DNA of 64,000 nt, from positions 48,632 to 112,631 of the IMG/VR virus record IMGVR_UViG_3300045988_116681; one strand, 5' to 3'. Below the pieces are notes generated by a model. It saw only the letters and a program-made list of their open reading frames with translations. It ran no database searches and had not been told where the DNA came from. Both the position numbers and the translations under genes were made by a program. Of this stretch, positions 1,782-64,000 are shown piece after piece. Each line of letters starts with the position of its first letter. Position 1 is the first letter of the stretch. Origin of the DNA: a virus.

Positions 1782-2302
1782 TAAGTTCCCTCCATTAGAA
1801 TAGGTTCTTTTTGATTGATAGACATACGAGAAAGGATGACACGTTGGTTGCTTGAGCCACGCCATTTAAGTGTAAGGTCGCGCAGAGAATCAACATATTG
1901 TCCATCTACTACTACGTCACATAATGATATTAGGTTTTGGCGATAGATTCTCATGTCAGATTCATCGTTCCATATATCTTCCCACTTAAAGCCAGTCCAT
2001 AGCCATACTGTTTTGCCAAGGCTACGAGCGGTTAAAGCAAGTTGATTCATAATGTGAAAGCCTGTGTTGTCTTGACATAGTGGGTCGCCACCTGTGAATG
2101 TAATACCACTGCACCAAGGTTGACGAAGCGTGTCACAAACGAAATTAAATTGTTCTTCGCCAAATTCGTCACCATTGTGGCTATCCCATGTTTCTGGGTT
2201 AAAGCAGTTTTTGCAATGATGATTACAGCCAGATACCCAAACTACGCAACGTAAACCGCTACCATTATTCATGTTACAAGAGTCAATTTTAATATAGTTC
2301 AT
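1781..2302 (-). CDS. nrdG: anaerobic ribonucleoside-triphosphate reductase activating protein (radical SAM)
   Basis: CNHHCKNCFN (CxxxCxxC) near the N-terminus; typical size; sits immediately downstream of nrdD. Confidence 0.9.
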   Translation of the reverse strand: MNYIKIDSCNMNNGSGLRCVVWVSGCNHHCKNCFNPETWDSHNGDEFGEEQFNFVCDTLRQPWCSGITFTGGDPLCQDNTGFHIMNQLALTARSLGKTVWLWTGFKWEDIWNDESDMRIYRQNLISLCDVVVDGQYVDSLRDLTLKWRGSSNQRVILSRMSINQKEPILMEGT

Positions 2303-2311
2303 ACTGACACC

Positions 2312-3274
2312 TCACATTGATTTGCGGTCTTTGAACTCTGCGAGTTTGTGGTCTGCATACATGGTTCTGCCTTTGATTTTAGAATATCCCAAATATCCGT
2401 TCATTCTCTCAATACGAGTGATGTTTTTACTGCCACATTTAGGACATTCATCTTTATCAATGAAAGAAGCGCCACAATCTTCACAATAATCAAGCTGTAG
2501 ATTTACGCCTTCGTAGAAGCCCATATCCATTGCTCTACGAATAAGAGTTTTCATTGCTTCAATATTGTAGTCTGTAGTATAACGACAATATTGAATATTA
2601 CCACCATTGCATAGATGGAACATTGGATATTCAATATCTTGCTTTTGAATAGGTGAAATATCTTCCCATACACCACAATGGAATGAATTAGAAGTGTAAG
2701 GACGGTCAGATACGCCCTTAATAATGCCGTATTTCTTGCGGAACTGCTCGACTTGCAAACCGCAAAGGGATTCAGCAGGAGTTCCGTAAAGAGCGTATAG
2801 AATGTTGTCGATTTTCTTATACTTCTCAGCATAATCATTGATAAACTTCAAAACTTCAATGGCAAAAGTATTATCTTCAGCAATGGTTTTACCGTTATAC
2901 AGTACACTGGTTTCATTGAGTGCAGTAATACCAAAACTCATTGTCATAGGACGAAGGAAATCTTCGCCAATTTCTTCTTCTGGGTCAAAGTGACCGTTAA
3001 GGAAACCGCCTTGACAGAAAGCAAGTGGGTTAGTACCAGCTTTCTTGTGAGAAAGATAAGTAAATGTGCGCTTGTGAATAGCACGGCACATATCAAGATA
3101 ATAAGTTAGTACATCATAAAAATCCTTGTTTTCTTGCTTTGCTTTAGCAAGAATCATAGGAAAGTGAAGGGAAATTGCTCCGAGGTTACAACGCCCTTCA
3201 TATACAGGCTTGTCTTGGTCATCTGCGGGGTACATACCGCCACGCTCATACCAAGGTGAAAGATTTGCTCGACA
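2312..3274 (-). CDS. nrdD: anaerobic ribonucleotide reductase NrdD, 3' exon (C-terminal part with the glycyl-radical region)
   Basis: Begins CRANLSPW.., which completes the ..ISRMG|CR.. junction motif. Carries a C-terminal Cys4 cluster and the RMNGYLGY glycyl-radical motif. Confidence 0.85.
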   Translation of the reverse strand, partial: CRANLSPWYERGGMYPADDQDKPVYEGRCNLGAISLHFPMILAKAKQENKDFYDVLTYYLDMCRAIHKRTFTYLSHKKAGTNPLAFCQGGFLNGHFDPEEEIGEDFLRPMTMSFGITALNETSVLYNGKTIAEDNTFAIEVLKFINDYAEKYKKIDNILYALYGTPAESLCGLQVEQFRKKYGIIKGVSDRPYTSNSFHCGVWEDISPIQKQDIEYPMFHLCNGGNIQYCRYTTDYNIEAMKTLIRRAMDMGFYEGVNLQLDYCEDCGASFIDKDECPKCGSKNITRIERMNGYLGYSKIKGRTMYADHKLAEFKDRKSM

Positions 3275-4097
3275 CAAGGGAATTATATCCCTTAGACTAT
3301 ATCATAATTGTTTGGTCAATTCTTCGCGCTTCCATAGCAAGAATTGCACTTGCTATGTACTCTACTTGGTTACTTTCTGATACAACCCAAATTACATATC
3401 AGATACCCTTTTGATAGTCGTTTAACATACATATTCAAATTTGTAATTATCGAAGTAATTAGGACTTAGTTCGCCTTTTAGCACTCGCGCAATTTTGTGC
3501 CTATCCATATGTAAACATCTACCAGCTTCACGAATAGAAGTGAAATTTTGCACATTGCCTTCTTTGTTAATAGCGCGAATAGCCGTGTTGTTTTTGTGTG
3601 TTCTATTGCCACTATCCCAACCATGTTGTACATTATAAGCATTAGTACACCATTCAAGATTTTCAAGACGATTGTCTGTTTTATCAGAATTGATATGATT
3701 AACGTACTTATAATTGTTAGGATTTGGGATGAAACAATGTGCTAAGATAACATGAACTCGTTCATGTACAAAACTGTGGTCAGGTAAACTACGCATTACT
3801 TGCATATATCCATCACTGCCTTTATGTGGGGTGACTTGATTACCTGTGCGAGAGTTATAAAAGTTAAAATTTTCATCTACCAAAAATCCGTTGTATTCTT
3901 TATATTGCATTTTATCACCTTCTTTCATATAAAAAATCATTTGAATATGCTTAGCACAGCGATTATTTCATACTTTTGTATGAACCTTCCCTGTTAGCAG
4001 AGATATTAACAAACCATTTCCTGTTTGAACTTACGTTATCTCCACACCATATATTTATATGTTCACGAAGTTTTACATGGGCTATCGTGTCATTTCA
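3275..4097 (-). other. probable group I intron (823 nt) interrupting nrdD
   Basis: Exon 1 ends ..ATG GGT with T as its last base, followed directly by a stop. The insert ends in G just before TGT CGA (CR..). It carries a free-standing HNH ORF. The joined exons restore the conserved ..SRMGCRANL.. sequence. Confidence 0.65.
3422..3910 (-). CDS. NUMOD4/HNH_3 homing endonuclease (intron-encoded)
   Basis: YKEYNGFLVDENFNFYNSRTG (NUMOD4-like) and HVILAHCFIPNP..VNHINSDKTDNRLENLEWCT (HNH_3). ATG at 3910 follows AAGGTGA. Confidence 0.85.
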   Translation of the reverse strand: MQYKEYNGFLVDENFNFYNSRTGNQVTPHKGSDGYMQVMRSLPDHSFVHERVHVILAHCFIPNPNNYKYVNHINSDKTDNRLENLEWCTNAYNVQHGWDSGNRTHKNNTAIRAINKEGNVQNFTSIREAGRCLHMDRHKIARVLKGELSPNYFDNYKFEYVC

Positions 4098-5285
4098 ACC
4101 CATTCGGCTAATAGTTACACCATACTTTTTATAAATTTCTGGCGCATAACCGTCACCTGTACACGAGATAAAATCAGGGTACATACATTTGCTACTGCAA
4201 TCAATCGCTTCATCAAACAGCCATTCCAGTTCTTTACCTTCGCCGTGAAGTTCTTTATCATAAAGGAAACTTAGTTTAGGAAATAGTACAGGATGCTTGA
4301 AACCTTTCTTACCTTGTCCTTCCTTGCGTACCCTTAGGCAAACAGAAGATAGCATAGATTCCATACGGTCAGTGCCAAGACCAAAAGAAACAGCAGTAAA
4401 CGGATAATCGCCACGACTTGAAGCCACAGAATTAAACTTCATTTCCCATGCTTGGAAACCTTGCTCTGCTTCACGAGCAACTTTATTAAAAGCATAGGTA
4501 TCTGCCGCTTGTTCAAATGCCCTACTGTTTGTATTGCCTTGCCAATTATCTACGATTTCAAAATAATCTTGGTAATATTTTTCATAACTCTTTTGAGCGT
4601 AAGGAGCAAGTAGTTTATCAATTTCGCTGATTGTATAGCCACCATACTGAGCCGCCGCCATATTCATTGCAACATCAGCTACAAGGTCAAAAGCTACATC
4701 AAGGCTATGTGGTTCTTCATAATCGAGATTACCCATAGTAAAACCGCCAGTAAGGATTGACTTCATATCAGCAAGACAACAGTTTACGCTATCAAGTCTT
4801 GAGCCACGGTCGTGAATATAAATATAGCCTTCAGACATGGCTTGTTCTTCTTCGATAGTAAGGAAGAATTTCTTGTAAAGTTCGCTGTTTAATTCATTGT
4901 ACACAATAGCCTTTTGTGTGGTTACAAGAGCACTATCAGCATTAGCGTTGCTTCTATCTCCGATAAAAGATAGGGACAGCTTCTTGCTATATACCTTATC
5001 CAGCATTGAAGCAAAGGCACTCTTATTGTCACGATATTCACGATAAGATTTTGCTACTGCTGAATTAACCGAATCAAGAGCAACTTCTACCATATTGTGA
5101 ATAGTGCTGACAGGAACAGGAGTTTCATTGTACTGTAACTTGCCACGAACGGTTGATACAACCTTATCTTCATCATTCTTAGATAAAGGCATACATACAC
5201 GTTCTGCGCTTTTTTGGATAGCTTTGCGAATCTTGTTTCCGTCAAAATTTACGATAGCCCCATTCTTTTTAAGGACTTTAATCAT
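4098..5285 (-). CDS. nrdD: anaerobic ribonucleotide reductase NrdD, 5' exon (ATP-cone plus N-terminal barrel)
   Basis: MIKVLKKNGAIVNFDGNKIRKAIQ is an ATP-cone. The ORF stops one codon after ..ISRMG. Confidence 0.85.
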
Positions 5286-5339
5286 AAATTATCACACTCC
5301 CTTGTATATAAATTTTTATAACCTACAATATCTTGTAGA

Positions 5340-9081: not shown

Positions 9082-9854
9082 TTAATCATTATTATATTTT
9101 CCTCTCCACCTAAACAACTTCTCTGTTTTCTTAGGCTGATTATTCTTATTATAGTCAAGCGTTCTTCTCAATTCCTTTTCCCAGACAACTTCAAAATCGT
9201 CTGGCGCTTCTTGCTCGGAAATAAATACAATACATCTCTTAGAAAGTTCACGCATATATTCCCAAAATTCTTCGTGGTTAAAATCGCCAGTTGTATAACC
9301 AGTGGTTTTAGCATAAGGCGGGTCACAATATACAACCGCTCCATCTGGAATATCGACTTCACGATAATCAAGACAAGTAAAGTTGGCGTTTTGCACACCT
9401 TGTAAGTCACGAAGTAAGCTACGTTCCGCTCGGGCACAATAATTGTCACCTCGTTTATTACTTGCCAATCCACCAAACCACTTACCACCAAACGAACAGC
9501 CAAAACCAACAAAACCAGCTAACGCCTTATTCTCGTCTTTGTGCTCTTTGACGTAATAGTATTCTTCTTTAGTGATAATAGAAGGTGGTGTCCAGCCAGA
9601 TTGTAAGCCTTTCCACATTTCAATCAAATATGGATGTTTGTCATTAAGAATTTTGGTTTCTGCTTTTACTTTCGCTTCAACTGCACAAGACCCACAAAAC
9701 AGACTTACGAATGTCTGCCCCCCCCAAGTTCAAGGTGTGGTTGATAACTTGTGCAATCTGAGTTGAGATACGAGATTTTCCGCCCATGTATTGCATTGTT
9801 AATTACCTCCGAAATTTGTTTAGAAATACGAGATTTACCGCCTAAGTAACGCAT
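9082..9854 (-). CDS. Dam-like (D12 class) N6-adenine DNA methyltransferase, out of frame at a G8 tract in this assembly (candidate phase-variable gene)
   Basis: The body 9082..9627 carries DPPY. Upstream there are two ATGs (9854 and 9796), each encoding M(R/Q)Y(L/M)GGKSRIS... Motif I (FVSLFCGSCAV) is reached only with G7/G10 from ATG2 or G9 from ATG1. With G8 both reading frames stop. Confidence 0.8.
9718..9725 (-). repeat. G8 homopolymer in the 5' coding region of the Dam-like methyltransferase
   Basis: Counted C8 on the plus strand. Flanks read AACTT-G8-CAGACA on the sense strand. Confidence 0.95.
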
Positions 9855-9885: not shown

Positions 9886-10605
9886 TTATCTCATTTTAGT
9901 CGCTTTGTCAATACGCTCTTTGGCGATTTCAAAATAATTTTCATCAAGTTCCATACCGATAAAATTACGATTTGTATTGGCGCAAGCTACGCCTGTACTG
10001 CCAGACCCCATACAGTTGTCGAGAACGGTCATTCCTTCATTGGTATAGGTCTTAATTAGCCATTCAAGTAGGGCTACTGGCTTCTGTGTAGGATGAACAC
10101 GACTTGCGTCACGATTGAAAGAAAGAATAGACAACGGATTTCTTTCGCCGTTCTTGCTTTCGCTCCATGCTTGTTTTCTATCACCATAATTATCTGATAG
10201 CGAACCGTTCTTTGTACGAGTATAAGGCGTACTATACCAGAATTGCTTATTATATACTGGCTTTTTCTTATAGAAGATTGCAATTTCTTCATGAGACTTT
10301 AGTGGTTTTACATTGGCGTTAAGAAAATCACAGCCACGATTTTTATTCCAGACAAGATTATAACGCCACATCTTTGTGTTAGACAGCATAAGATTAGCCA
10401 TAAACAAGCCATCACAGAATAGAGCAATTACGCCATTGTTGGTGATGATACGATTGTACTGTTCCCACAACTTATCAAATGGAACAATCGTATCCCACTT
10501 ATTTTTGGTCGAGCCATAAGGCAAATCACATAGAATCATATCCACCGACTGGGGGGGGATATGGGGCATAAGTTCAAGGCAATCGCCATTCTTAATATCA
10601 ATCAT
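9886..10605 (-). CDS. DNA methyltransferase (N6_N4_Mtase family, beta class)
   Basis: DLPY follows the N-terminal domain. The C-terminus has VLDNCMGSGSTGVA (FxGxG-like) and IGMELDENY. Confidence 0.85.
   Translation of the reverse strand: MIDIKNGDCLELMPHIPPQSVDMILCDLPYGSTKNKWDTIVPFDKLWEQYNRIITNNGVIALFCDGLFMANLMLSNTKMWRYNLVWNKNRGCDFLNANVKPLKSHEEIAIFYKKKPVYNKQFWYSTPYTRTKNGSLSDNYGDRKQAWSESKNGERNPLSILSFNRDASRVHPTQKPVALLEWLIKTYTNEGMTVLDNCMGSGSTGVACANTNRNFIGMELDENYFEIAKERIDKATKMR
10551..10558 (+). repeat. G8 (C8 on the coding strand) homopolymer in codons 15-18 of the methyltransferase
   Basis: The coding strand reads CAT ATC CCC CCC CAG. The gene is in frame (ON) as assembled. Confidence 0.95.
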
Positions 10606-10633
10606 TGTTTGTTCTCCTATTTAACTTAAATGT

Positions 10634-11155
10634 TTACTTCTTTTGAATTTCTTCAAAGACAATCTGCTTTGGTAGCATCTTATGGCATACATACACACTA
10701 CTGAAAGGTGGGTTAAGGCTGGGCTTCTGGTCTGCGTAGTCCTTGAAGTAAGCCACTCTGCGGTTAAGATACATGATTTCAAACTCATTGTTCTTAAACA
10801 TATCGAATCTTCGCTGAGATTCAAACAAGCCTACAACACCCACCAACATTGCGAACGGCTTGCCAATTTCAAACAGTCGTTCCAACACTTCTGTCTTGAC
10901 GCTATAAGGCGGATTGCTGATAATCATGTCGCACTGTGGTACTGGCGTTGTGAAAAAGTCCTGACCATTATCAATGTGCGTACAGATTACCTTGTTGCCC
11001 TGTGCTTTAAGCATTTTAACAAAGTGTGATTCTTCTGTGTCAAAAGGACACCATACTGTCAGTTGGGGGGGGGCGTAAACCAAGATAGGCTTGACCGCAT
11101 AGGGCGGTGTATAGAAGTTATCATTGCCAGAGCCAGCTACTTTATCCATTTTCAT
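10634..11155 (-). CDS. N6-adenine DNA methyltransferase (NPPY motif)
   Basis: Contains ISNPPYS and an N-terminal YTPP motif. ATG at 11155 follows GGAGAG. Confidence 0.75.
   Translation of the reverse strand: MKMDKVAGSGNDNFYTPPYAVKPILVYAPPQLTVWCPFDTEESHFVKMLKAQGNKVICTHIDNGQDFFTTPVPQCDMIISNPPYSVKTEVLERLFEIGKPFAMLVGVVGLFESQRRFDMFKNNEFEIMYLNRRVAYFKDYADQKPSLNPPFSSVYVCHKMLPKQIVFEEIQKK
11065..11073 (+). repeat. G9 (C9 on the coding strand) homopolymer in the 5' part of the NPPY methyltransferase
   Basis: The coding strand reads TAC GCC CCC CCC CAA. In frame as assembled. The plus-strand flanks GTCAGTT-G9-CGTAAAC resemble those of the tract at 25553. Confidence 0.95.
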
Positions 11156-25238: not shown

Positions 25239-25544
25239 TTAGTGGAATAATAGCACTTGGATTCCATACCAATTTGTGAGACAATTCAAAGTAATATCGT
25301 GTTCTGTTATGCTGACAACCATCCGATTTGCGTTTTGAGTATAAAAATAGCCTGATTGCACAAAGGTTTCTGCAACGTATTCTGTTGATAAAGAAGGATA
25401 CAAACTTCCGCTTACCACAATCATTTTCACAGGAGCGTTGAGAGGAATCACTTTGTTGATACCCTGCTCTAATTCCCCTATTTCGACTGTTGTTACTTGA
25501 AGTGCTGTACCTTCCAACATTTCCTTCATTACTTTTGCATCCAT
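25239..25544 (-). CDS. family B small protein (B4)
   Basis: MDAKVMKEMLEG... It is a paralog of the proteins at 32610, 34998 and 40870. Confidence 0.6.
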   Translation of the reverse strand: MDAKVMKEMLEGTALQVTTVEIGELEQGINKVIPLNAPVKMIVVSGSLYPSLSTEYVAETFVQSGYFYTQNANRMVVSITEHDITLNCLTNWYGIQVLLFH

Positions 25545-25552
25545 TACTTACG

Positions 25553-25559
25553 CCCCCCC
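25553..25559 (-). repeat. G7 homopolymer 8 nt upstream of the B4 ATG
   Basis: Sense strand reads TTCAGTT-G7-CGTAAGTA-ATG. Confidence 0.95.
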
Positions 25560-25611
25560 AACTGAACGAGAAGTTTGTAAGTTGTGAGCGTCAGGAGGAT
25601 TGCTTACGCGC

Positions 25612-25656
25612 TCAACGTAAGCCCCCCCCCAGTGAAACAATGGTTTGGTTCTTCAT
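25612..25656 (-). CDS. leader ORF L6 (14 aa as assembled) containing a G9 tract
   Basis: AAGGAGG, 9 nt, then ATG. It translates to MKNQTIVSLGGGLR*, and the stop lies inside the hairpin GCTTACG-ttgagcg-CGTAAGC. Confidence 0.45.
   Translation of the reverse strand: MKNQTIVSLGGGLR
25622..25630 (-). repeat. G9 homopolymer in leader ORF L6
   Basis: Counted C9 on the plus strand. Confidence 0.95.
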
Positions 25657-30147: not shown

Positions 30148-31878
30148 TTATTCCTCCCCATACATACCCGCTCTATCGTTAATAACAAGAACTCGTAGCA
30201 AATCTTCACTCAAGTCAAGACCCTTGCCATTGCCCTTGAGATAGCCCTTGTCTACCAACTTCTTAATAGTTGCCTTGCCCCAGTCTGGAACTTCAGCAAC
30301 ACTATTATATACCTTATTATACTTGTCGTATACTTGTTCAGCAATCTTACCAGCCACTTGATTAGCAATCTTCTTTGCTTCGGACTGAGCAATAGCTGTA
30401 GTTTCTGCCTTAGTCATGTCATCAACCTTTCTAACCATTTGTAAAAATTCTGTCCATTGTTCATAGTGTTTTACAAAAGGTTCAGGACAGTTACCAACAA
30501 TAAAAGTTCTTCCCTTTTGACGAATAAGAATATATCCTGTTGGCACACTTACACACGAAACTCGTGCATTTCTTTTTTCAACACTATATTGTTTATCACC
30601 TATTGTATAATTACAAGTGGCAATATCTACACTATCATAATGATATTTTTTATAATGATTTTTAGCATGAAGAGCCTTTTTTGCCCTCATTCCATGCGTA
30701 GCACAAATAGCTTGAACAACGTCTAAATTTTTTTCAATAACGGAGCAATAATTATTTTTTGCTACGCATCCATCAACTTGTAACAATTCTTCCCAAAAAA
30801 CTTCAAATTGATTTTGTGTCATTTCAATCCAATCATAGGTAAATTGTTTATCAGATAACCATTTGCAACACCAATCATAAGTAATTTTGTCAAATTTTAC
30901 ATAAATTAGAGTACTTCCATCATTTTTATAAGAAATCTGAGGAACAATTTCCATTTCATTTAACAAAGACAGTAATCTATCAATTTTTCTTTGTCTTTTA
31001 AAATGGAACTCGATACCATAAATTGAATTAGAAGGTTTCCATCTTCTATAATGACCATCACCTTGAAGCCATACTAAAAAACGAATTTCATTGTCTGAAA
31101 GAGGTAGACCTTTATTTTCATAAAAACCGTTGGTTTTTATCATGGTTGTTCTGCCTTTGTCAAGAATCTCTTGATAAGATTTTTCTTCCCATCTCTCGTT
31201 AGCGTGATAAAAACGCGCCCACATACGGTGATTAGCAGTAGCTTCAAAATTATGGTTCTTTAGAACTTCAGCTTCGTAAGGCTCAACCACGCTACTAACA
31301 GCGCCAAAAGATAGTCTATCAGTATTAGTGTCATACTGCATAACTTCTTCTCCAACCTTAATATCTCCAAGAGCCTTCCAACCTTCTCGTGTTAGAAGTT
31401 CGGTTGAATCCAAAGGTAAACAATACTTATGCGTAACATGATAGTGCATACACACATGGTTAATATCAATACCATACTGTTCCATTAGCCACTGTACCAG
31501 CTTTACAGTGCGCTTCTGGGTTTCCATAGTAATTACATATTCACCGTTCTTCCAGTCGCTACACATTTCAATACCAATGGAATTAACGTTGCGACAGCTA
31601 TTGTAATAATAGCCTGTTTCACTACCACAATGCCATGCTGTGTTAGCAAGGTTTACAGTCTGCCAAATTTCATTCTCGTCAACAAAGAAATGTGCGCTTG
31701 CATTAAGCCCACCGCAACGAGCAAAATAATCTGCATTGTTCTTTGCAGTATCGCCCTTGCCAGCAGTAAAGTGAATAACAATCCATTGAATCTTATGCTT
31801 TACGCCATTCTTAGTTCGACCATACATGAAATTAGATTCATTACATTGCTTAAATTGAAAATAAGGTTTTTCTGCCAT
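30148..31878 (-). CDS. N-acetylmuramoyl-L-alanine amidase endolysin (Amidase_2) interrupted by an intein
   Basis: The exteins join as ..HVTHKY|CPEPF.., restoring the K.CP zinc-ligand motif. The N-extein carries the AHFFVD and GIEMC motifs. The C-terminal tail is a putative wall-binding region. Confidence 0.85.
   Translation of the reverse strand: MAEKPYFQFKQCNESNFMYGRTKNGVKHKIQWIVIHFTAGKGDTAKNNADYFARCGGLNASAHFFVDENEIWQTVNLANTAWHCGSETGYYYNSCRNVNSIGIEMCSDWKNGEYVITMETQKRTVKLVQWLMEQYGIDINHVCMHYHVTHKYCLPLDSTELLTREGWKALGDIKVGEEVMQYDTNTDRLSFGAVSSVVEPYEAEVLKNHNFEATANHRMWARFYHANERWEEKSYQEILDKGRTTMIKTNGFYENKGLPLSDNEIRFLVWLQGDGHYRRWKPSNSIYGIEFHFKRQRKIDRLLSLLNEMEIVPQISYKNDGSTLIYVKFDKITYDWCCKWLSDKQFTYDWIEMTQNQFEVFWEELLQVDGCVAKNNYCSVIEKNLDVVQAICATHGMRAKKALHAKNHYKKYHYDSVDIATCNYTIGDKQYSVEKRNARVSCVSVPTGYILIRQKGRTFIVGNCPEPFVKHYEQWTEFLQMVRKVDDMTKAETTAIAQSEAKKIANQVAGKIAEQVYDKYNKVYNSVAEVPDWGKATIKKLVDKGYLKGNGKGLDLSEDLLRVLVINDRAGMYGEE
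30490..31422 (-). mobile_element. intein (311 aa) with a LAGLIDADG homing endonuclease, inside the endolysin
   Basis: Starts CLPLDSTELLT..GDIKVGEEV (Hint N-terminus) and ends ..ILIRQKGRTFIVGN|C (Asn plus Cys+1). Two LAGLIDADG-like motifs: LVWLQGDGH and LLQVDGCV. Confidence 0.8.
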
Positions 31879-32167: not shown

Positions 32168-32590
32168 TTATGCGACTTTTATCCATTCTGTAGGATAACC
32201 AATAATTATTTTTGCAGTCGAAGAAGCAAAATAATCTTTTGCGATTTCTCCTTGCTTTTTAACATATATAATTTTATATTTAATTGTAAAATTATATGTT
32301 CGAGTAAGCGGAGTGCGAGAATAAATTTGTATACCAAATCCAACTTCTTTAGAATTGAGATATAGAGAATTATCGTCAGTAGTATAATAACCCGGTGGTT
32401 CTACATCTACTGTACCGCTTACCCACTGTAAGCCCACAGCAGTGTCTATTCCTAATAATTGAAGTGAAGCAGACGTACCATTTATGAAAGTATTGTTTAT
32501 TGCTAATTCAAAAGTTCCTTCATATACGCCCAACTCCGCAATGCCAGTATCAATTCCTTTACTTCCAAGGTGATTGACGATACTATTCAT
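32168..32590 (-). CDS. family A small protein (A, partner of B1)
   Basis: MNSIVNHLG... Own SD GAGGTGA. The start sits in an ATGA context. Confidence 0.65.
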   Translation of the reverse strand: MNSIVNHLGSKGIDTGIAELGVYEGTFELAINNTFINGTSASLQLLGIDTAVGLQWVSGTVDVEPPGYYTTDDNSLYLNSKEVGFGIQIYSRTPLTRTYNFTIKYKIIYVKKQGEIAKDYFASSTAKIIIGYPTEWIKVA

Positions 32591-32976
32591 GCAATCACCT
32601 CGTTTCTATTTAATAGAACGCTACTGCATAAGCCGAGTCTTTCCCTTGTAAATGGTCTATGGTCATTGTTTTGCCAGCGAATGTTACATCTATATAATCG
32701 TTTTCTGAGTTGGAGTCGGCATAATGGTAAGTTGTTGTTTGTTCGGAATAATAAATGCTTACTGAATATCCGTAATTGTATCCACTGGCAGAATAATACA
32801 TACTTAAAGAAACAAATTTCGGGACGTGAGAGAAAGTAAATTTTATTTCTTCGTTGTAGGCTTCTGCTTCTTTGTATTCCGCAGTTAAGCCTTGCACTTG
32901 TAAAGGCTCTCCCATAATCTTTCCGTTCATCTACTCTGCCCCCCCCAAGTCTCATTGAGGTTTGCATATTATACAT
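32587..32976 (-). CDS. leader ORF L2, which as assembled (G8) continues through all of B1 in the -1 frame and stops on the start codon of the A gene
   Basis: This is the same frame as track ORF 32587..33030. ATG at 32976 follows AAAGGA. Its TGA (32587-32589) overlaps ATG 32588-32590. Confidence 0.4.
   Translation of the reverse strand: MYNMQTSMRLGGGRVDERKDYGRAFTSARLNCGIQRSRSLQRRNKIYFLSRPEICFFKYVLFCQWIQLRIFSKHLLFRTNNNLPLCRLQLRKRLYRCNIRWQNNDHRPFTRERLGLCSSVLLNRNEVIA
32610..32930 (-). CDS. family B small protein (B1)
   Basis: MNGKIMGEPLQVQGLTAEYKE... A paralog of the 40870 protein (shared ..GLTAEY.. and ..VTF(A/S)GK.. segments). Confidence 0.65.
   Translation of the reverse strand: MNGKIMGEPLQVQGLTAEYKEAEAYNEEIKFTFSHVPKFVSLSMYYSASGYNYGYSVSIYYSEQTTTYHYADSNSENDYIDVTFAGKTMTIDHLQGKDSAYAVAFY
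32939..32946 (-). repeat. G8 homopolymer 8 nt upstream of the B1 ATG
   Basis: Sense strand reads GAGACTT-G8-CAGAGTAG-ATG. Confidence 0.95.
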
Positions 32977-33002
32977 ATTGCTCAAATTCCTTTCTGAGCA
33001 AT
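32977..33002. repeat. inverted repeat ATTGCTCA-10 nt-TGAGCAAT
   Basis: The TTGAGCAA motif in both orientations. The loop contains the leader SD. Confidence 0.8.
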
Positions 33003-33026: not shown

Positions 33027-33356
33027 TCAAGACAAAGTGCCTAATTCAAGATACTTAAAATAGGGTGAAATTGAATTATTATAATAGTTTTCAACCTTGA
33101 AATGCCCCTCCCCGAAATAGAACCACACCGCAGGACTATTTTCGCCAAAGGCACCATACGAGAACTCTATTACTTCCTTAAAAACACTCACTTTACCAAT
33201 CATTACGCTGTTGTCGGTCATCATCAACTTAAAATATAAACTCGCATCTGTTGTTGCAATTTTTACAACTGAGCTACCTTCTGCTACATCTTGATGAATA
33301 GCACTCTTAAAATGAATTGTTCCTTCTACACCCTTACCTGTTACAATCCCATCCAT
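33027..33356 (-). CDS. family A small protein
   Basis: MDGIVTGKG....LELGTLS. Confidence 0.65.
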   Translation of the reverse strand: MDGIVTGKGVEGTIHFKSAIHQDVAEGSSVVKIATTDASLYFKLMMTDNSVMIGKVSVFKEVIEFSYGAFGENSPAVWFYFGEGHFKVENYYNNSISPYFKYLELGTLS

Positions 33357-33406
33357 CAGCCGACACTTCCCTTCATGCCAGCCATCTCATTGCTCATATT
33401 AAATTT

Positions 33407-33469
33407 TAGGAGAATGCTAACGCATTGCCCCCCCCAACCGAAGTCAGGGTTGACTGAATGTTAAACATA
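33407..33469 (-). CDS. leader ORF L1 (20 aa as assembled)
   Basis: AAGGAGAA, 4 nt, then ATG. It translates to MFNIQSTLTSVGGGNALAFS*. Confidence 0.45.
33429..33436 (-). repeat. G8 homopolymer in L1
   Basis: Counted C8 on the plus strand. Confidence 0.95.
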
Positions 33470-33514
33470 ATGTTCTCCTTTTTGTGTAGTTATATTTGAG
33501 CAATGAGTAGAGGG

Positions 33515-33859
33515 TTATTCTAACAACCCAAAATCCACCGAGGAAATATACAAAGACAAATTATTATTGTTAAAACCAAAACCAACATATTCTATTCCTT
33601 CAGTATTAGTATAATCTATGCTAAACGAAGGAGAGTAGTCGCCTGAACTATTTCTAAAAGTAAAATAATTAGTACCTCTTAAAGTTTCATACTTAAAAAT
33701 GCTAATTTGTCCATATAAATCAACGATTTTAACATATGGCGCAATTCTGTCTACAAGAAAGTTAATATGGAACGTATTTAACGCATCGTCTTTATATGAT
33801 TTTTTACTCATGAATGTCAAAGCATTAGCAGTAAATGGCTTATTAACAATCCCATTCAT
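33515..33859 (-). CDS. family A small protein
   Basis: MNGIVNKPF....VDFGLLE. Confidence 0.65.
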   Translation of the reverse strand: MNGIVNKPFTANALTFMSKKSYKDDALNTFHINFLVDRIAPYVKIVDLYGQISIFKYETLRGTNYFTFRNSSGDYSPSFSIDYTNTEGIEYVGFGFNNNNLSLYISSVDFGLLE

Positions 33860-33969
33860 ACAGTCACCTGCTTTCGGTGACTCACATTGCTCAAATATTC
33901 AGTTGTTAGGGAGTTATTGCCCCCCCCCAAGTGAAGCATAAGTTCACTCAGAGAAAACTTGATACGCAT
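33856..33969 (-). CDS. leader ORF L3 (37 aa), terminating in ATGA on the start of the A gene
   Basis: AAGGAGTG SD. It translates to MRIKFSLSELMLHLGGGNNSLTTEYLSNVSHRKQVTV*. Its TGA overlaps ATG 33859. Confidence 0.5.
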   Translation of the reverse strand: MRIKFSLSELMLHLGGGNNSLTTEYLSNVSHRKQVTV

Positions 33970-34013: not shown

Positions 34014-34415
34014 TTAGGATTTTAAGGCAAGCGCTAAATAGAAGCGAGTACCATCTTGGACATTATTTTTGAACAATCGGCATATTATACCAGTATTGAT
34101 AATGTTAAAATCACAATAATAAATATCGCTTGTTCCATTTGTAGTACCCGTTTTATATATTTTAGAACTTAATAAAACATGATTGCTTGTACTGCCACCT
34201 ATAACATCAGCCTTATACTCATATATAGATAGACACGGTGAAGCATAGTACCACGCATTGTCACAACCAATAAGCAAAAGCTTGCAACTATTGTGCGATT
34301 CTTCGTACCAATATAGTATCTGAAATTGTTCACTGGTAGCTTCTGCGGTGATAATATCATCAACATTGATACTTATGTCAGCCAGTTCAGCCAGCTTATT
34401 CACAATCCCATTCAT
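34014..34415 (-). CDS. family A small protein
   Basis: MNGIVNKLAEL... ATG at 34415; the track ORF begins at the GTG one codon earlier. Confidence 0.65.
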   Translation of the reverse strand: MNGIVNKLAELADISINVDDIITAEATSEQFQILYWYEESHNSCKLLLIGCDNAWYYASPCLSIYEYKADVIGGSTSNHVLLSSKIYKTGTTNGTSDIYYCDFNIINTGIICRLFKNNVQDGTRFYLALALKS

Positions 34416-34493
34416 CACATGACCCCCTTACTTGCGTATAGGAGGTTGCCAATCCTGTTGCTCAAAGGAAAGGCGTTAATGACCATTAGAAGG

Positions 34494-34532
34494 TCAGAAG
34501 AACGCCCCCCCCAAGTTAAAGCGAAGGTTCAT
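34494..34532 (-). CDS. leader ORF L4 (12 aa as assembled)
   Basis: AAAGGAGAA SD. It translates to MNLRFNLGGAFF*. Confidence 0.4.
   Translation of the reverse strand: MNLRFNLGGAFF
34505..34512 (-). repeat. G8 homopolymer in L4
   Basis: Counted C8 on the plus strand. Confidence 0.95.
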
Positions 34533-34588
34533 AATTTTGTTCTCCTTTGTTTAATTTTGAGCAACATTAGATGGGTGGTTAGATTGAT

Positions 34589-34978
34589 TTATCCAAACAC
34601 ATAATAATGAACGTTTTTTATTTTGCCACTTTGATTATTCAAATGAAAAGTTATTTTATTGTTTGAATAATCATAGTTCAAATTTTCTATGTCTATAGAA
34701 GAATATCGCACATAAGTTGGGTTGTCACCATCATATTCATAAAGTCTATATGAAAACCCCGAAGTTGAGTTGAGTGGAATCATTTGAACAAATTGCGCTC
34801 TAATTAACATAGATGACGGATTTGGAATAACCACTACTGCCATCGCTTGTGCGTCTATTGGCAATGATTGAAAATCAAAAATAGGAAGTGATACTTCATG
34901 AATGTTACTTGAATAACTACCTTCAAATGAAAAACACTTGTTTTGATTTACAAGTACAGGATTCACGATACCATTCAT
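34589..34978 (-). CDS. family A small protein (partner of B3)
   Basis: MNGIVNPVL... ATG at 34978 in a TGATG context. Confidence 0.65.
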   Translation of the reverse strand: MNGIVNPVLVNQNKCFSFEGSYSSNIHEVSLPIFDFQSLPIDAQAMAVVVIPNPSSMLIRAQFVQMIPLNSTSGFSYRLYEYDGDNPTYVRYSSIDIENLNYDYSNNKITFHLNNQSGKIKNVHYYVFG

Positions 34979-34997: not shown

Positions 34998-35309
34998 TCA
35001 GCCTAAGAATGTCACCAATAAGGGGTCGCTTACGTTGTTGTATTCTATCCGAACAGTGCCAACAGAATAACGAACTATCTGCACTCTTGCTGAAGTAACA
35101 CTTTGGTCTATTAAATATAATTTGTCTGCCGAAAGTAAAGGTAAATAAATCATTGCACCTATCAACGCACTTATGTTGTCTACACTTATTGTGCAAAATA
35201 AAGGTGTTACATCGAAGCCAAAAGTTAGCCCTCTGGTAATGGATTTTGCTTGCAATACTTTTAACCCGCTCATGGATTTTTCTACTTCTTGAATAATCTT
35301 TCCATCCAT
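34998..35309 (-). CDS. family B small protein (B3)
   Basis: MDGKIIQEVEKSM... ATG at 35309 in a TAATG overlap with leader L5. Confidence 0.6.
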   Translation of the reverse strand: MDGKIIQEVEKSMSGLKVLQAKSITRGLTFGFDVTPLFCTISVDNISALIGAMIYLPLLSADKLYLIDQSVTSARVQIVRYSVGTVRIEYNNVSDPLLVTFLG

Positions 35310-35410
35310 TAGTACGCCCACCTCTCTTGTTGCTCAACCGAGAGGTAATCATCGGTGGGCTTACTTGGCGTATGCCCCCCCCAGTGACGGGGAGTTTTAG
35401 TCTTAATCAT
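35309..35410 (-). CDS. leader ORF L5 (33 aa), terminating TAATG on the B3 start
   Basis: GGAGAA SD. It translates to MIKTKTPRHWGGHTPSKPTDDYLSVEQQERWAY*. Confidence 0.45.
   Translation of the reverse strand: MIKTKTPRHWGGHTPSKPTDDYLSVEQQERWAY
35375..35382 (-). repeat. G8 homopolymer in L5
   Basis: Counted C8 on the plus strand. Confidence 0.95.
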
Positions 35411-40487: not shown

Positions 40488-40847
40488 TTATTGTAAAGTT
40501 CCAACTGCGATTTTGGAAAGTATACTATTTATTTGTATATTGGCATTGATTTGTACAAAATTAGCATTTATATAATATTGTGTGCCTACATAAATTTCTG
40601 CTATACCTCCCCAATTATCACTGTAAAAACGAATTGTGGTATAATTTGAAGATTGCAGTGTGCTAAGTTGTAACATAACACTACTATCATAAATTCCATA
40701 AATTATTATATATTTTTCTTTATGGTTTTCTTCTTGCATAATAGAAGTGGTATAACGACTTGAAGTTACTTCAGACAAATCATAATATTCTTCAGCCACA
40801 AAAGAAACATCAGACAGAACAGGCGATTGCGCGATAATTGCATTCAT
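40488..40847 (-). CDS. family A small protein (partner of B2)
   Basis: MNAIIAQSP....IAVGTLQ. SD GAGGTGA. ATGA context. Confidence 0.65.
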   Translation of the reverse strand: MNAIIAQSPVLSDVSFVAEEYYDLSEVTSSRYTTSIMQEENHKEKYIIIYGIYDSSVMLQLSTLQSSNYTTIRFYSDNWGGIAEIYVGTQYYINANFVQINANIQINSILSKIAVGTLQ

Positions 40848-40869: not shown

Positions 40870-41193
40870 TTAGAAGAAGCCTACTGCAAAAACCTTGCTT
40901 GCACTGACTGAAGATAATTCTATATTTTTCCCAGAAAATGTTACATAAAATGAATTGGTTTGTGAACCTTCCAAAGCGTAATACACATAGCAATTGTCTG
41001 GAAACCATGCTATATTCACGCTGTATGCTGCGTTTGAAGTGTACCTTTGAGGACTCCAAAGTGTTAGGCTTACAAAACTCGGCGCTTGGGAAAAAGAAAG
41101 CGTGACTTCTTGTTGATGGACTTCTTCTTCGAGATACTCTGCCGTCAGCCCGTTTTCCTGCTCCACAAATTCCTTCATTACTTTTGCGTTCAT
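40870..41193 (-). CDS. family B small protein (B2)
   Basis: MNAKVMKEFVEQENGLTAEY... Confidence 0.65.
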   Translation of the reverse strand: MNAKVMKEFVEQENGLTAEYLEEEVHQQEVTLSFSQAPSFVSLTLWSPQRYTSNAAYSVNIAWFPDNCYVYYALEGSQTNSFYVTFSGKNIELSSVSASKVFAVGFF

Positions 41194-41201
41194 TTAATCT
41201 G

Positions 41202-41209
41202 CCCCCCCC
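41202..41209 (-). repeat. G8 homopolymer 8 nt upstream of the B2 ATG
   Basis: Sense strand reads GCGAGTT-G8-CAGATTAA-ATG. Confidence 0.95.
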
Positions 41210-41243
41210 AACTCGCGCCAAGGTTGACAGATTACAGCTTACA

Positions 41244-41294
41244 TCACCGTGTAAGCCCCCCCCAAGTGAAACGGAGGTTTGGTAAATTGAACAT
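41244..41294 (-). CDS. leader ORF L7 (16 aa as assembled)
   Basis: AAAGGAGGA SD. It translates to MFNLPNLRFTWGGLTR*. Confidence 0.45.
   Translation of the reverse strand: MFNLPNLRFTWGGLTR
41256..41263 (-). repeat. G8 homopolymer in L7
   Basis: Counted C8. Followed by the hairpin GCTTAC-acggtgat-GTAAGC. Confidence 0.95.
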
Positions 41295-46681: not shown

Positions 46682-47518
46682 TTAGAACACCAGTCCCTTC
46701 ATAGCTTCGTTAATCTGAGCCTGTTCATGCTTAATGTAACGAGTGGTAGTAGCGATAGAATTATGCCCCAACATTGCACTAATAGTTGCTACACCTACGC
46801 CATTAGCATTAGCAATAGTAGCCGCTCCCGCTCTAAGCGCATGATTAGTAATTTCATTCCAGAACGGAATGCCAGCACGCTTTGCAGTCAACTTCAGCAT
46901 CTTGTTAAGATTGCTATTATCAAGATGTTCACCACGTTCAGAAGTGAACAAATACTCACCATCTGCACGCTCAAACTTGATGTAGTTATCAATGCTTTCC
47001 TTTGCCTGTTCATTGACATAAATCGTGCGTTCCTTCGCGCCCTTGCCGAGAATAACAATCTGATTATCAATCATGTTATTGTAGTCCTCAAAAGTGATGG
47101 AAGTTAACTCGCTGAAACGAAGTCCAGTAGAGCAATACAGAGCAATAACTGCAATATCTCTGAACTTTTTGCAGTTGTGAAGCATCTTGCGTACATCTTC
47201 TGCGGAGATATAATGCTTTTCCTTGTTCTTAATCTTAGGAGAAGTAAGGTCAAGAGCAGGATTCTCATTGATAACCTTGGCAGAAGTCAGAAACTTGAAG
47301 TAATTCCTAACTGCACTAATCTGGATGTTCATGGATGCGGTAGACAGATTGCTGATAGACGCTTTCCACGCGGTCAAGTCGAGGAAAGAAATTTCTTCGA
47401 CAGGCTTATTAACGAATGCCAGCATCTTATCTACATAAAGCAAATAGTTCTTGATGGTGTTTTCGGACTTCTTATCTGCTACCAGAGAAGCCTTGTAATA
47501 CTCGTTAATGTTAGTCAT
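46682..47518 (-). CDS. tyrosine recombinase (phage integrase / XerC-D family)
   Basis: ..TGLRFSEL.., HALRAGAAT, LGHNSIATTTRYIK (R..H.R..Y). ATG at 47518 follows AAGGAGAG. Confidence 0.85.
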   Translation of the reverse strand: MTNINEYYKASLVADKKSENTIKNYLLYVDKMLAFVNKPVEEISFLDLTAWKASISNLSTASMNIQISAVRNYFKFLTSAKVINENPALDLTSPKIKNKEKHYISAEDVRKMLHNCKKFRDIAVIALYCSTGLRFSELTSITFEDYNNMIDNQIVILGKGAKERTIYVNEQAKESIDNYIKFERADGEYLFTSERGEHLDNSNLNKMLKLTAKRAGIPFWNEITNHALRAGAATIANANGVGVATISAMLGHNSIATTTRYIKHEQAQINEAMKGLVF

Positions 47519-47549
47519 TGAAATCTCTCCTTCGTTTCTTGATGTGCTT

Positions 47550-47578
47550 ATTGTAACATGGCACAAGCCAAAAGTCAA
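47550..47578 (-). promoter_or_regulatory. sigma-A-type promoter
   Basis: TTGACT-17-TACAAT. Confidence 0.65.
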
Positions 47579-47652: not shown

Positions 47653-48912
47653 TTACATTTTTATTGTTTGAATCATTTGCGTAGTTCTTGCTGTAATTCT
47701 TTTACATCTTTGGAGTTTTGGTGTTTTATATCCTCTTGGCAAATAAGAAAAATTAAGACGGTTTCCTTCAAAATCCATTAAAACGACTTGCCCTTGTATA
47801 CCTCTACCTTTAATATAACATTCTACTCCAAAATATCTGACTTTATCAAATTTTCTGAACCCGTTAATTTTTGTTGTGGTTATACGCCTTTCAGACCGAA
47901 CACCTTTTGTTTGCTGAAAGTCGCCTTCGGGAACACATTTCTTTTTATAAAGATTGGTATTTATTGTAAAATTTTTACCTTGTGTCGCTATTACGCAAGC
48001 ATCATAATAATGTTCTTTATCCACTTTTAATTGCAAACGATTAAACTTAGTAATATATCCATAAGTCTCTATTGCTTGCGGATATAATCTAAAAAGCTGT
48101 GTTCGTATACTATTCATTTGAGTGGCAAATTTGAGAACACCTTTCGCTTTTCCTTCTTGCTTGAGAATTATTTTCCCATTGTGTAATTTTTTATGACAAG
48201 TATGACAGAGAGTTATCAGATTGTTTTCTTCGTCAGACCCACCTTGGCTACGAAAAATTATATGATGAACTTCCAATCTTTTATCTTTATGTTTATTTTT
48301 ACAATATTGACAAGTATAGTTATCACGATTAAGCACCTTTGCTTTTGTGTTTTCAAACCCATAATTGACTCCTTTTTGATACCCCCAATGTCGAATTTCA
48401 GCGTTAGCAAGCAAAGGGTTTTTCAACAAATGAGTATCAAATTGGCTTGTTTCAAATACTATTTCAGAAATAGGCAAAATACTTTTAATAAATTCTATTT
48501 CTTTCACATGACTATACAATTTACTTACCATTGTTGGGCTAAACCGATTTTTTCTAAAAGAGTTAGCACGATTTAACCATCTTGGTTTTCTATAACGAGT
48601 TTTACGACTTCTTCTGTTTCTACGATAAGAAGCTCTACGAGTCATTTTATTAGTAATATTATTTCTTACTATTACTTCTGACATATATACTATCTTTCCC
48701 TTATCCGTAGCCACAGCCGTACCAAAAGTTCCGCTTCCAGTATCAACACCCAAAGTCAATTTTTGAATATAATTTGTAGAATCGTTAAGCAGTTTAATCG
48801 TAAAAGGTTCACGCCTTTTTACTTTTGCTTTACCTTGTTTAAGTAATAATCTTGCAATTACATTTGTGCAAGGCATTAAGGGCTTGTTGTTTTTAGAAAC
48901 TACATAAACCAT
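47653..48912 (-). CDS. iscB: IscB RNA-guided nuclease (PLMP, split RuvC, HNH)
   Basis: KPLMPC (PLMP), LGVDTGSGTFG (RuvC-I), Arg-rich bridge helix RRASYRRNRRSRKTRYRKPRW, EIVFETSQFD (RuvC-II), CQYC..HHIIFRSQGGSDEENNLITLCHTCH (HNH), HYYDACVIA (RuvC-III). Confidence 0.9.
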   Translation of the reverse strand: MVYVVSKNNKPLMPCTNVIARLLLKQGKAKVKRREPFTIKLLNDSTNYIQKLTLGVDTGSGTFGTAVATDKGKIVYMSEVIVRNNITNKMTRRASYRRNRRSRKTRYRKPRWLNRANSFRKNRFSPTMVSKLYSHVKEIEFIKSILPISEIVFETSQFDTHLLKNPLLANAEIRHWGYQKGVNYGFENTKAKVLNRDNYTCQYCKNKHKDKRLEVHHIIFRSQGGSDEENNLITLCHTCHKKLHNGKIILKQEGKAKGVLKFATQMNSIRTQLFRLYPQAIETYGYITKFNRLQLKVDKEHYYDACVIATQGKNFTINTNLYKKKCVPEGDFQQTKGVRSERRITTTKINGFRKFDKVRYFGVECYIKGRGIQGQVVLMDFEGNRLNFSYLPRGYKTPKLQRCKRITARTTQMIQTIKM

Positions 48913-49169
48913 GATAAGTCTCCTTATAAATACTCTGTCTTATGACAGGTGATGCGTACTTTGTCTCACTATTACCATGAGATTGTTCCGACTTCAACTC
49001 GACAATGATATAAAGGCTTTTAAGTATATATCACAAGGCTATGCTTACTCTGACCTAACTTAAATATATACGATAGAGCGATGGTCTGTTGCGTCAACCA
49101 AAGGTATCATGACCTAAATATCGTAGCTATTATTTCTAATAACTAAGTCTGGCAGACTGTTTAACAGAA
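48913..49169 (-). ncRNA. candidate omegaRNA of IscB
   Basis: A structured non-coding stretch lying directly upstream of iscB, the position where omegaRNAs are encoded. I cannot confirm the fold by eye. Confidence 0.45.
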
Positions 49170-49254
49170 GCCCACCACTCTTAATTGAGAGGTGGGCGGT
49201 CTGCGGAGGTGAAAACCATGAAAAGCAAACGCCTTTCTTATGGCACGATATGGG

Positions 49255-63992: not shown

Positions 63993-64000
63993 CCCCCCCC
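63993..64000 (-). repeat. G homopolymer of at least 8 nt, cut by the window edge
   Basis: The plus strand ends ..AATGCCCCCCCC. Confidence 0.9.

Follow-up and report, generated by a model that had tools for sequence, protein, structure and literature searches.

Length variation of a poly-C run in a putative adenine methyltransferase gene of a human gut phage: a candidate contingency locus among many G/C runs

Phage methyltransferases are usually regarded as fixed anti-restriction equipment. Bacteria have phase-variable methyltransferases (phasevarions), among them the Type III mod genes and the Type IIG gene cj0031 of Campylobacter jejuni, as described in two accounts (PMC5149525, PMC4889913). 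For phages, hypermutable polyG tracts have been described inside the receptor-binding protein genes of Campylobacter Fletchervirus phages (Sorensen et al., 2021, Cell Rep 35:109214, as cited in PMC12823448 and PMC12633550), while the homopolymer contingency loci of coliphages T2 and T4 undergo reversible slippage and provide bet-hedging against host defence (Gomez, Barrick and Waters, 2025; PMC12633550). A polyG tract in the methylase gene of Bordetella phage BPP-1 is noted, without further study, in a passage of the same article that points to Liu et al. (2004) (PMC12633550). Repeats can also act from outside the regulated gene: in the pil1 locus of Streptococcus gallolyticus, GCAGA repeats alter the length of a leader, and the ribosomes act by destabilising a terminator of transcription (Danne et al., 2014; PMC3894217). 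Here, we describe a 64,000-nt stretch of phage DNA (positions 48,632 to 112,631 of IMG/VR record IMGVR_UViG_3300045988_116681; hereafter the window) and a run of eight C residues (C8) near the start of a putative methyltransferase gene, M2, which is flanked by two further methyltransferase genes, M1 and M3. The window belongs to a phage of ~113 kb found in human gut metagenomes, with related contigs of 111-114 kb.

The C8 run is very probably a hypermutable simple-sequence repeat, that is, a contingency locus, at which slippage would switch M2 and so produce a population of mixed genotypes with different methyltransferase subsets. The existence of the run, its non-randomness, its length polymorphism in otherwise identical genomes and the reading-frame outcome of each length are established. 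Slippage as the mechanism, reversibility, the activity and specificity of the enzyme and a selective benefit are what we infer from established bacterial contingency loci and from phage anti-restriction methylation.

The M2 gene and length variants of its run

The gene, its signals and the run are positioned as follows; a gene is called ON when its full-length open reading frame (ORF) is intact and OFF when it is frameshifted.

9886..10605, minus strand: M2, putative beta-class N6-adenine-type DNA methyltransferase (PF01555), 239 aa, ON as assembled
10613..10618, minus strand: Shine-Dalgarno (SD) sequence of M2, AGGAGA, by direct reading of the sequence
10558..10551, minus strand (G8 on the plus strand): poly-C run C8 of M2, codons 16-19
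10587..10589, minus strand: alternative M2 ATG in the +1 frame, which with C9 starts a 234-aa ORF (MAIALNLCPISPPQSVD...)

The M2 protein (N-terminus MIDIKNGDCLELMPHIPPQSVD) matches the Pfam profile PF01555 (N6_N4_Mtase) with 114.7 bits against a cut-off of 26.7, and its residues 21-230 cover profile positions 1-221 of 221. Its relatives in the PDB are M.RsrI, CcrM, DpnA and MboIIA (E 1e-19 to 5e-10), and the NCBIfam matches are to CcrM-like and adenine-specific models, every one below cut-off. Motif IV reads DLPY (CDLPYG) where (D/S/N)PP(Y/F) was expected, and DLPY or DLPF occupies this position in nearly all of the ~78 listed homologs of M2. For the S-adenosylmethionine motif, sought as FxGxG, the protein has the Gly-rich stretch NCMGSGSTG.

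Around the run the coding strand reads ATG CCC CAT ATC CCC CCC CAG. The first C of the run closes codon 16 (Ile) and the last one opens codon 19 (Gln), so that the run occupies codons 16-19 and not the codons 15-18 given in an initial annotation of this sequence, which had otherwise correctly placed a C8 at 10551-10558 inside an ORF that is ON as assembled. Among C6 to C9 with these flanks, only C8 stays in frame and gives the 239-aa product. Loss of one C (C7) leads to a 22-aa stub (MIDIKNGDCLELMPHIPPSRWI*) and gain of one (C9) to a 26-aa stub, which refines the truncation after about 20 aa that the initial annotation gave for a one-nucleotide change; C6 gives 25 aa.

Run lengths were compared among public gut-metagenome contigs (L001 and following), and exact-product look-ups counted the contigs with an identical predicted product. 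The exact M2 ON protein as query returned only contigs that were 100% identical and had identical runs; this query presupposed the ON state and was hence uninformative. The length variants surfaced when neighbouring proteins were used as queries, and three of the contigs so obtained are nearly or fully identical to the window:

L098 (sample ERR4794239): 0 mismatches in 7,456 nt (100.00% identity) to the window; M1 C8, M2 C7, M3 G8
L107: 2 mismatches in 5,383 nt (99.96% identity) to the window; M1 C8, M2 C7, M3 G8
L105: 1 mismatch in 4,471 nt to the window; M3 G9, M1 outside the contig, which begins directly after the M2 run (window 10551)

The M2 run thus differs by one C between genomes that are otherwise the same. 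C8 is present in the window, in L001-L006 and in L099, and relatives at 92-95% identity have C6 (L108), C8 (L114, L115) or C9 (L019, L087, L109-L112). The flanks of the run are identical or almost so in these relatives, L109 deviating upstream of it. The initial annotation had named an absence of length variation as the observation that would count against a switch; with C7 in contigs of 100.00% and 99.96% identity and C6, C8 and C9 in relatives, the opposite was found, and its interpretation of the M2 run as an ON/OFF switch is supported. Exact look-ups found the 239-aa ON product on 16 contigs and a 217-aa call of the OFF form on 6. Over the contigs at least 99.9% identical to the window (~131 kb aligned) there are 14 run-length changes and 8 substitutions, and no insertion or deletion (indel) outside the runs; the changes among contigs go in both directions, towards longer and shorter runs.

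Sister phages carry interrupted, locked-ON alleles of M2 (CCCCTCCC, CCCTTCTC). These are ATC CCC TCC CAG in L015 and L119 and ATC CCT TCT CAG in L118, both encoding IPSQ; the allele ATT CCC CCC CAG of L117 has a C7 run, yet is in frame. A scan of JGI metagenomes for the M2 flanks gave three matches, all with 8 nt between the flanks (one TC7 in-frame allele and two interrupted alleles), and no additional run length. Judged by their sequences, the alleles look like a series from a run-free form up to the full run.

Some public contigs end exactly at runs: L105 starts after the M2 run, and the 112.6-kb contig behind L094 ends inside run 33920 (window 33921). Such breaks are what mixed run lengths inside a sample would do to an assembly graph.

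The run is not a product of base composition. The window, with a GC content of 38.8%, holds 13 G/C runs of 7-9 nt, while 200 first-order Markov simulations gave a mean of 0.78 runs of at least 7 nt and a maximum of 3, corresponding to a ~17-fold excess. The length distribution is bimodal: runs of 5 nt number ten and runs of 7-9 nt 13, with a gap at 6 nt. In the long ORFs of the window, the codons that make up the runs are the least used of their kind, CCC for Pro (10.7%) and GGG for Gly (5.3%). The ~78 IMG/VR homologs of M2 have IPDKS(V/I)D at the run position and no homopolymer, indicating that the M2 protein does not need Pro-Pro there. The M2 run has three marks of a contingency locus, namely a repeat beyond composition, length polymorphism in near-identical genomes and a frame switch between a full-length and a truncated product. 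Frequent, reversible switching in a clonal population would be a fourth, for which the 14 run-length changes against 8 substitutions, the changes in both directions and the contig breaks at runs give indirect support. On its sequence, M2 is assigned to the putative phase-variable methyltransferase genes and is not filed as a phasevarion.

Slipped-strand mispairing during replication of the phage genome would gain or lose a C. A C8 genome would make the M2 enzyme, while C7 and C9 genomes would make the 22- and 26-aa stubs and lose it. A population of this phage would then comprise several genotypes, each expressing its own subset of the three orphan adenine-type methyltransferases, and the progeny of different infected cells would bear different methylation patterns. 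As a hedge, the ON state would evade restriction that is blocked by methylation, and the OFF state would evade methyl-dependent defences; methylation itself and a benefit against host defences, which the initial annotation had also proposed, are likewise put forward here as expectations. Virion DNA would bear the marks of whichever enzymes are encoded by the genome that replicated in the producer cell, leaving the phenotype one infection cycle behind the genotype.

Neighbouring methyltransferases and leader reading frames

All three methyltransferase genes have runs of 8-9 nt near their 5' ends (M1 C9, M2 C8, M3 G8), as had been pointed out from the sequence before, and their block belongs to a system of at least 13 runs. 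The two neighbours of M2 are:

10634..11155, minus strand: M1, small putative N6-adenine methyltransferase with an NPPY motif, 173 aa, ON as assembled
11065..11073, minus strand: poly-C run C9 of M1, codons 28-31, in frame
9082..9854, minus strand: M3, D12-class Dam-like methyltransferase (Pfam PF02086), frameshifted (OFF) as assembled
9718..9725, minus strand: poly-G run G8 of M3, out of frame as assembled

The M1 run is C8, and the gene OFF, in L098, L106-L108 and L110-L115. The 173-aa ON product of M1 is found on 18 contigs and its 126-aa OFF fragment on 32. M3 has a more complex arrangement. Its first start, ATG 9854 (MRYLGGKSRIS...), and its second, ATG 9796 (MQYMGGKSRIS...), are in different frames, and at G8 the body of the protein (..TFVSLFCGSCAVE...DPPY; also FCGSCAV...DPPY) is in the third. 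The GGK-motif N-terminus and the body of the window copy are therefore in separate frames, so that the PF02086 profile match, the DPPY motif and the GGK motif do not come together in one, and the frame-repaired protein matches TIGR00571 (dam) below cut-off; the window copy is an OFF allele of a D12-class family member. G7 or G10 is predicted to join start 2 to the body, and G9 to join start 1. The predicted 257-aa start-1 product, which carries ~20 extra residues read from the other frame, is present in the protein collection on one contig, L105, and this contig has G9; the products predicted for G7 and G10 from start 2 have no exact match in the same collection. A distant homolog of M3 in L009, from a phage with 31% GC, retains this double start, its G7 run bringing start 2 into frame, and M3 is intact in L087, where the C after the run is lost and the frame restored, and in L112, where the run is lost. 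The 178-aa OFF fragment of M3 is found on 18 contigs and a G8-specific 39-aa product on 30; this common G8 is the sole OFF length.

The methyltransferases occur in the following combinations:

Window: M1 ON, M2 ON, M3 OFF
L098 and L107: M1, M2 and M3 all OFF
L019: M1 ON, M2 OFF, M3 OFF
L087: M1 ON, M2 OFF, M3 ON
L114 and L115: M1 OFF, M2 ON, M3 absent

The suggestion of eight methylation states within a population can be kept in the form of up to eight, which is reasonable; the states would be unequal in likelihood, since M3, OFF as assembled, has two starts and two of three run lengths (modulo 3) give its full-length ORF.

Run-bearing methyltransferase genes extend past this phage species. 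L011, from another phage, has a 77%-identical homolog of M2 with a poly-G (G9) at the same protein position as the poly-C of M2, and G7-G13 or C8 runs are found in methyltransferase genes of the gut-phage contigs L009 (IMGVR_UViG_3300045988_154461), L011, L016, L036 and L106. Several of these lie in or adjoin catalytic motifs (FGGGG in Dam-like enzymes, AGGGG and GGSPC in C5 methyltransferases), and in L106 another gene carries a G8 close to its start.

The run flanks share a pattern that is independent of the coding strand. Oriented as poly-G, each of the 12 runs for which the window includes the 5' flank has a T before it (usually ACTT, AGTT or ACT), and a C comes after 12 of the 13, while the background at G3/G4 runs is ~58% T before and ~30% C after; examples are 9714-9727, 11061-11076 and 25549-25562. 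TCAGTT-Gn-CGTAA is common to the M1 run (antisense) and the leader run at 25553.

The other ten runs start at 25553, 25622, 32939, 33428, 33920, 34505, 35375, 41202, 41256 and 63993, and none is in a main ORF. They are located in short leader ORFs upstream of hypervariable small genes, some of which form pairs (A and B, numbered by position):

41202..41294, minus strand: leader ORF (ATG 41294) with poly-G at 41256-41263 and 41202-41209, upstream of A41 (40870..41193) and B41 (40488..40847)
35375..35410, minus strand: leader start ATG 35410, poly-G 35375-35382, upstream of A35 (34998..35309) and B35 (34589..34978)
34505..34532, minus strand: leader start ATG 34532, poly-G 34505-34512, upstream of gene 34014..34415
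33920..33969, minus strand: leader start ATG 33969, poly-G 33920-33928 (G9), upstream of gene 33515..33859
33428..33468, minus strand: leader start ATG 33468, poly-G 33428-33435, upstream of gene 33027..33356
32939..32976, minus strand: leader start ATG 32976, poly-G 32939-32946, upstream of A32 (32610..32930) and B32 (32168..32590)
25553..25656, minus strand: leader ORF (ATG 25656) with poly-G at 25622-25630 (G9) and 25553-25559 (G7), upstream of A25 (25239..25544) and B25 (ATG 25216)
63993..64000, minus strand: poly-G run (C8 on the plus strand) at the window end, upstream of a small gene starting MNAIV..., its leader beyond the window

All seven complete units consist of an SD-like purine-rich stretch (strong in six, weaker in unit 32939), an ATG, 6-13 codons and then the G run. 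The genes downstream encode ~100-148 aa and start MNGIV, MDGKI or MNAKVM; a PHROGs search of ten of these small proteins gave no family, and an Rfam scan of the whole window gave nothing at the leaders. According to a run-length script, every unit has one frame (two in 32939) in which the stop of the leader coincides with or adjoins the main ATG (offsets -6 to +1), in the form ATGA, TGATG or TAATG or with the stop 0-3 nt ahead of this ATG. In all other frames the leader terminates 47-81 nt upstream or, where the unit is one of the four A/B units, runs on to gene B. As assembled, the leader stop of unit 33920 overlaps the main ATG (ATGA), G8 in unit 35375 sets the leader stop on the A35 ATG (TAATG), and in unit 32939 the leader at G8 crosses A32 in a stop-free alternative frame and stops on the B32 ATG.

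The leader runs vary in length as well. Among near-identical contigs, run 35375 is found as G8, G9, G11 and G12. Run 32939, G8 in the window, is G9 in L095 and L102-L104 and G6 in L096; run 33920, G9 in the window, is G8 in L093, L096, L103 and L104 and G7 in L102. Runs 34505 and 41202, both G8 in the window, are G9 in L096 and in L097 and L104, respectively, the lengths of the 25553/25622 runs differ in L102-L104, and run 33428 is G8 in all contigs examined.

In minimum-free-energy folds, the SD-like stretch before the main ATG pairs with an upstream complement (z-scores -1.5 to -3.6). The predicted pairings are CCUCCU/AGGGGG, which forms the hairpin of unit 34505, GUCACC/GGUGAC and GCCCACC/GGUGGGC. 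None of these predicted leader hairpins has a terminator-like U tract, so that the attenuation mechanism of pil1 itself is not indicated. The poly-G, which is 8-9 nt ahead of the ATGs of A32, A41 and A25, could also itself be their ribosome-binding site. In several units a 10-nt inverted repeat, ATTGCTCAAA...TTTGAGCAAT, flanks the leader ORF and G run (32977-33002, 33389-33504, 33886-33895, 34457-34565), and in unit 32939 its loop contains the leader SD. The repeat could be an RNA structure or a site of recombination or processing; an invertible DNA segment was set aside, the opposite orientation being found in none of the contigs.

The A genes have a further peculiarity. Continuing from the leader, the -1 frame of A25, A32, A35 and A41 stays open for 102-108 codons and terminates at the B gene's ATG, against a background of 0.123 stops per codon for this frame in the 33 longest ORFs of the window and 0 of 7,242 sixty-codon windows open. 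It is open in 10 of 11 A orthologs from three diverged relatives, though the A proteins diverge after ~9 residues; the peptide encoded in the alternative frame seems, by eye, not to be conserved. The predicted structure of A32 (pLDDT 83) is an eight-strand beta-sandwich. It has no significant match in a fold search against the PDB, and its matches in BFVD, all of them weak (E 3e-4 to 1e-2), are to gut-virome entries labelled tail fiber protein, which for this modelled structure gives a hint that the small downstream genes may be receptor-binding modules.

In the mechanism proposed here, the run length would set the leader frame, and only ribosomes arriving at the main ATG would open the hairpin and pass to the main gene. 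In the A/B units, the third frame would skip A and carry ribosomes to B. Three outputs would result: a leader that stops on the A ATG would allow A and probably B to be made, one that traverses the A frame kept stop-free by selection and stops on the B ATG would give B only, and one that stops early would give neither. The cassette would be ordered as a promoter-proximal inverted repeat, an SD, a ~10-codon leader, a G8-9 run and a hairpin over the SD-like stretch of the next gene, and it would put any downstream gene under phase control with its coding sequence unaltered. We tentatively suggest, as a possibility somewhat short of probable, that the phage holds a modular genome-wide contingency system in which three methyltransferases are combined with portable leader cassettes that control hypervariable beta-sandwich genes with three-state A/B outputs. 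We know of no description of a three-state translational switch that uses the alternative frame of a whole gene as a ribosome bridge.

Alternatives to switching, and other elements of the window

The foremost alternative, to which we leave a small chance, is that the M2 run is a mutational hotspot without adaptive role and that C7 and C9 are drifting loss-of-function mutants of dispensable accessory genes. Methyltransferase genes are indeed gained and lost in this phage group (L015 is without M1 and M3, L106 without M2 and M3, L113 without M2), and OFF states are frequent, M1 being OFF on 32 contigs as compared to ON on 18. Drift does not, however, account well for runs of the rarest codons that relatives of 90-95% identity have retained in identical positions and that have arisen convergently in other phages. 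One synonymous change would abolish a run, and alleles of this kind exist without having displaced it. There are moreover 13 runs where ~0.8 are expected, and none of 6 nt, the conserved double start of M3 serves two of three frames, and the leader units have stop/start overlaps and a frame that is kept stop-free. These properties of the runs, the double start and the leaders are design features and unlike what neutral drift predicts.

It is considerably less probable that the runs act at the level of expression, with RNA polymerase slippage or ribosomal frameshifting giving both products from one DNA length. Transcriptional slippage is known at homopolymers of 8-9 nt, and the presence of G8 in M3 in almost all contigs, with its specific 39-aa product on 30, would be in line with it. 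Slippage is, however, documented best for A/T runs, and DNA length differences are seen directly in all three methyltransferase genes and in seven leader runs. Recoding is moreover compatible with DNA-level switching, to which it could add leakiness. Homopolymer sequencing or assembly errors can practically be dismissed as the source of the length differences: homopolymers are error-prone, some contigs are of low coverage, and L105 and the contig behind L094 (inside run 33920) have their breaks at runs, but individual variant products are found again on 6 to 32 independent contigs of separate studies, lengths shift both ways and by as much as +3 and +4 (G11, G12), sample ERR4794239 has some runs altered and others as in the reference, no indel lies outside the runs in ~131 kb, and breaks at runs are expected from mixed lengths within a sample.

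Several points weigh against the proposed switching of the methyltransferases. The run lengths come from assemblies, i.e., one consensus per sample, and reversibility is deduced from the existence of +1 and -1 variants. The M1 and M3 runs are identical in eight contigs of 100% identity; the methyltransferase runs may switch less often than the leader runs, or be under stronger selection. At C9, the 234-aa ORF from the alternative ATG keeps the body of M2 with a scrambled N-terminus, and judging from this reading frame an N-terminally altered M2 could be made, leaving OFF perhaps incompletely off. Members of 234 and 238 aa of the M2 cluster are present among public gene calls, and an exact look-up of the C9 alternative-start product with the sequence of the window gave no match in the protein collection. 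Finally, no methyltransferase model in Pfam matches M1 above cut-off (EcoRI_methylase and Dam match weakly, below it) and NCBIfam gives no match, while the NPPY motif is readable in the translation.

The gene content of the phage includes helicases, DnaB, DNA polymerase III alpha, NrdD, a holin and an amidase. A blastn search against GenBank phages gave distant methyltransferase matches alone and no close relative. Hints of a host of the Gram-positive type come from strong ribosome-binding sites of the AGGAGG type, a protein with an SLH domain and Phage_holin_1; the NAGPA-SLH protein, searched against GTDB genomes, gave a 27% match to Clostridium celatum alone, which is uninformative on the host. 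In the Rfam scan the sole matches were four tRNAs and one HEARO RNA (RF02033, 86.8 bits, gathering score 83). The latter immediately precedes a 419-aa ORF that has an HNH motif, and from their sequences the two together (47653-49204, minus strand) look like an IscB-type OMEGA element, adjoining a 298-aa ORF (46682..47578, tyrosine recombinase-like by eye) and the cluster of four tRNA genes. The Amidase_2 endolysin (30148-31878, minus strand) has 576 aa here as compared to 266-267 aa in L102-L104, a gap in size that suggests the insertion of an intein or of a segment resembling a homing endonuclease in this strain. For the anaerobic ribonucleotide reductase NrdD (~2300-5300), the gene calls of L003 give two pieces of 396 and 307 aa with an HNH_3 endonuclease gene between them, which suggests an intron or a split gene.

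Comparison with described systems

As the bacterial accounts describe them, phasevarions share with M2 a repeat within the methyltransferase ORF, a frame shift upon gain or loss of units, stochastic ON/OFF states and methylation differences between subpopulations. In contrast to phasevarions, the phage has three adjoining orphan Type II-like methyltransferases and no effect on a regulon is implied; the relevant substrate is presumably the phage's own DNA, for evasion of defences, instead of a host regulon. The Fletchervirus phages, according to the articles cited above, likewise have a phage genome with multiple G runs (~7-11 nt) that create subpopulations of virions, but here the runs are found in three methyltransferase ORFs and in leader ORFs of a gut phage with 39% GC. 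In the passage on BPP-1, a phage methylase gene with a G run is already on record. The genome scan of the article on T2 and T4 considered homopolymers of at least 6 nt, whereas here G/C runs of 7-9 nt are present in a low-GC genome in ~17-fold excess and belong to a triple methyltransferase block and to a dedicated leader architecture.

The pil1 locus is the nearest precedent for the ten runs outside the methyltransferases, as there a repeat in a short upstream leader ORF governs how far ribosomes reach and thereby downstream expression, as would be the case here. It differs in that here the G run shifts the leader frame, the stop of the ON frame overlaps the main ATG and the predicted hairpins cover SD-like sequences, and in that four units have a third frame that is stop-free through a whole gene up to the next ATG. 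The lic loci of Haemophilus influenzae, studied by Weiser, Love and Moxon in 1989, are reported to have more than one start codon, each in its own frame, ahead of the repeat. They are the closest match for M3, with two starts in different frames and more than one productive repeat length, though M3 duplicates a whole N-terminal motif (xYxGGKSRIS), one copy per start, and its start-1 product has an insert of ~20 aa. In the literature searched, neither a phage that has several phase-variable methyltransferases nor a leader-ORF G-run switch in any phage is reported, which is not proof of their absence.

A widespread gut phage thus appears to randomise which of three methyltransferases it expresses, and the mixture of states is already seen in public metagenomes. 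Epigenetic state, and hence host range and sensitivity to defences, would be heterogeneous by design in a natural phage population, which bears on how methylation-motif matching of phages and hosts in metagenomes is read. Automatic calls of pseudogenes or fragments, such as the 39-, 126-, 178- and 217-aa products, may conceal functional switches of this type. The leader-ORF runs would take the contingency logic of phages from coding frameshifts to the translational control of exchangeable cassettes, and the seven leader units, with natural alleles in all frames, are a concrete testable system. Compared with the described loci, the switch is of a known kind, a contingency locus, in a new and unusually elaborate phage configuration.

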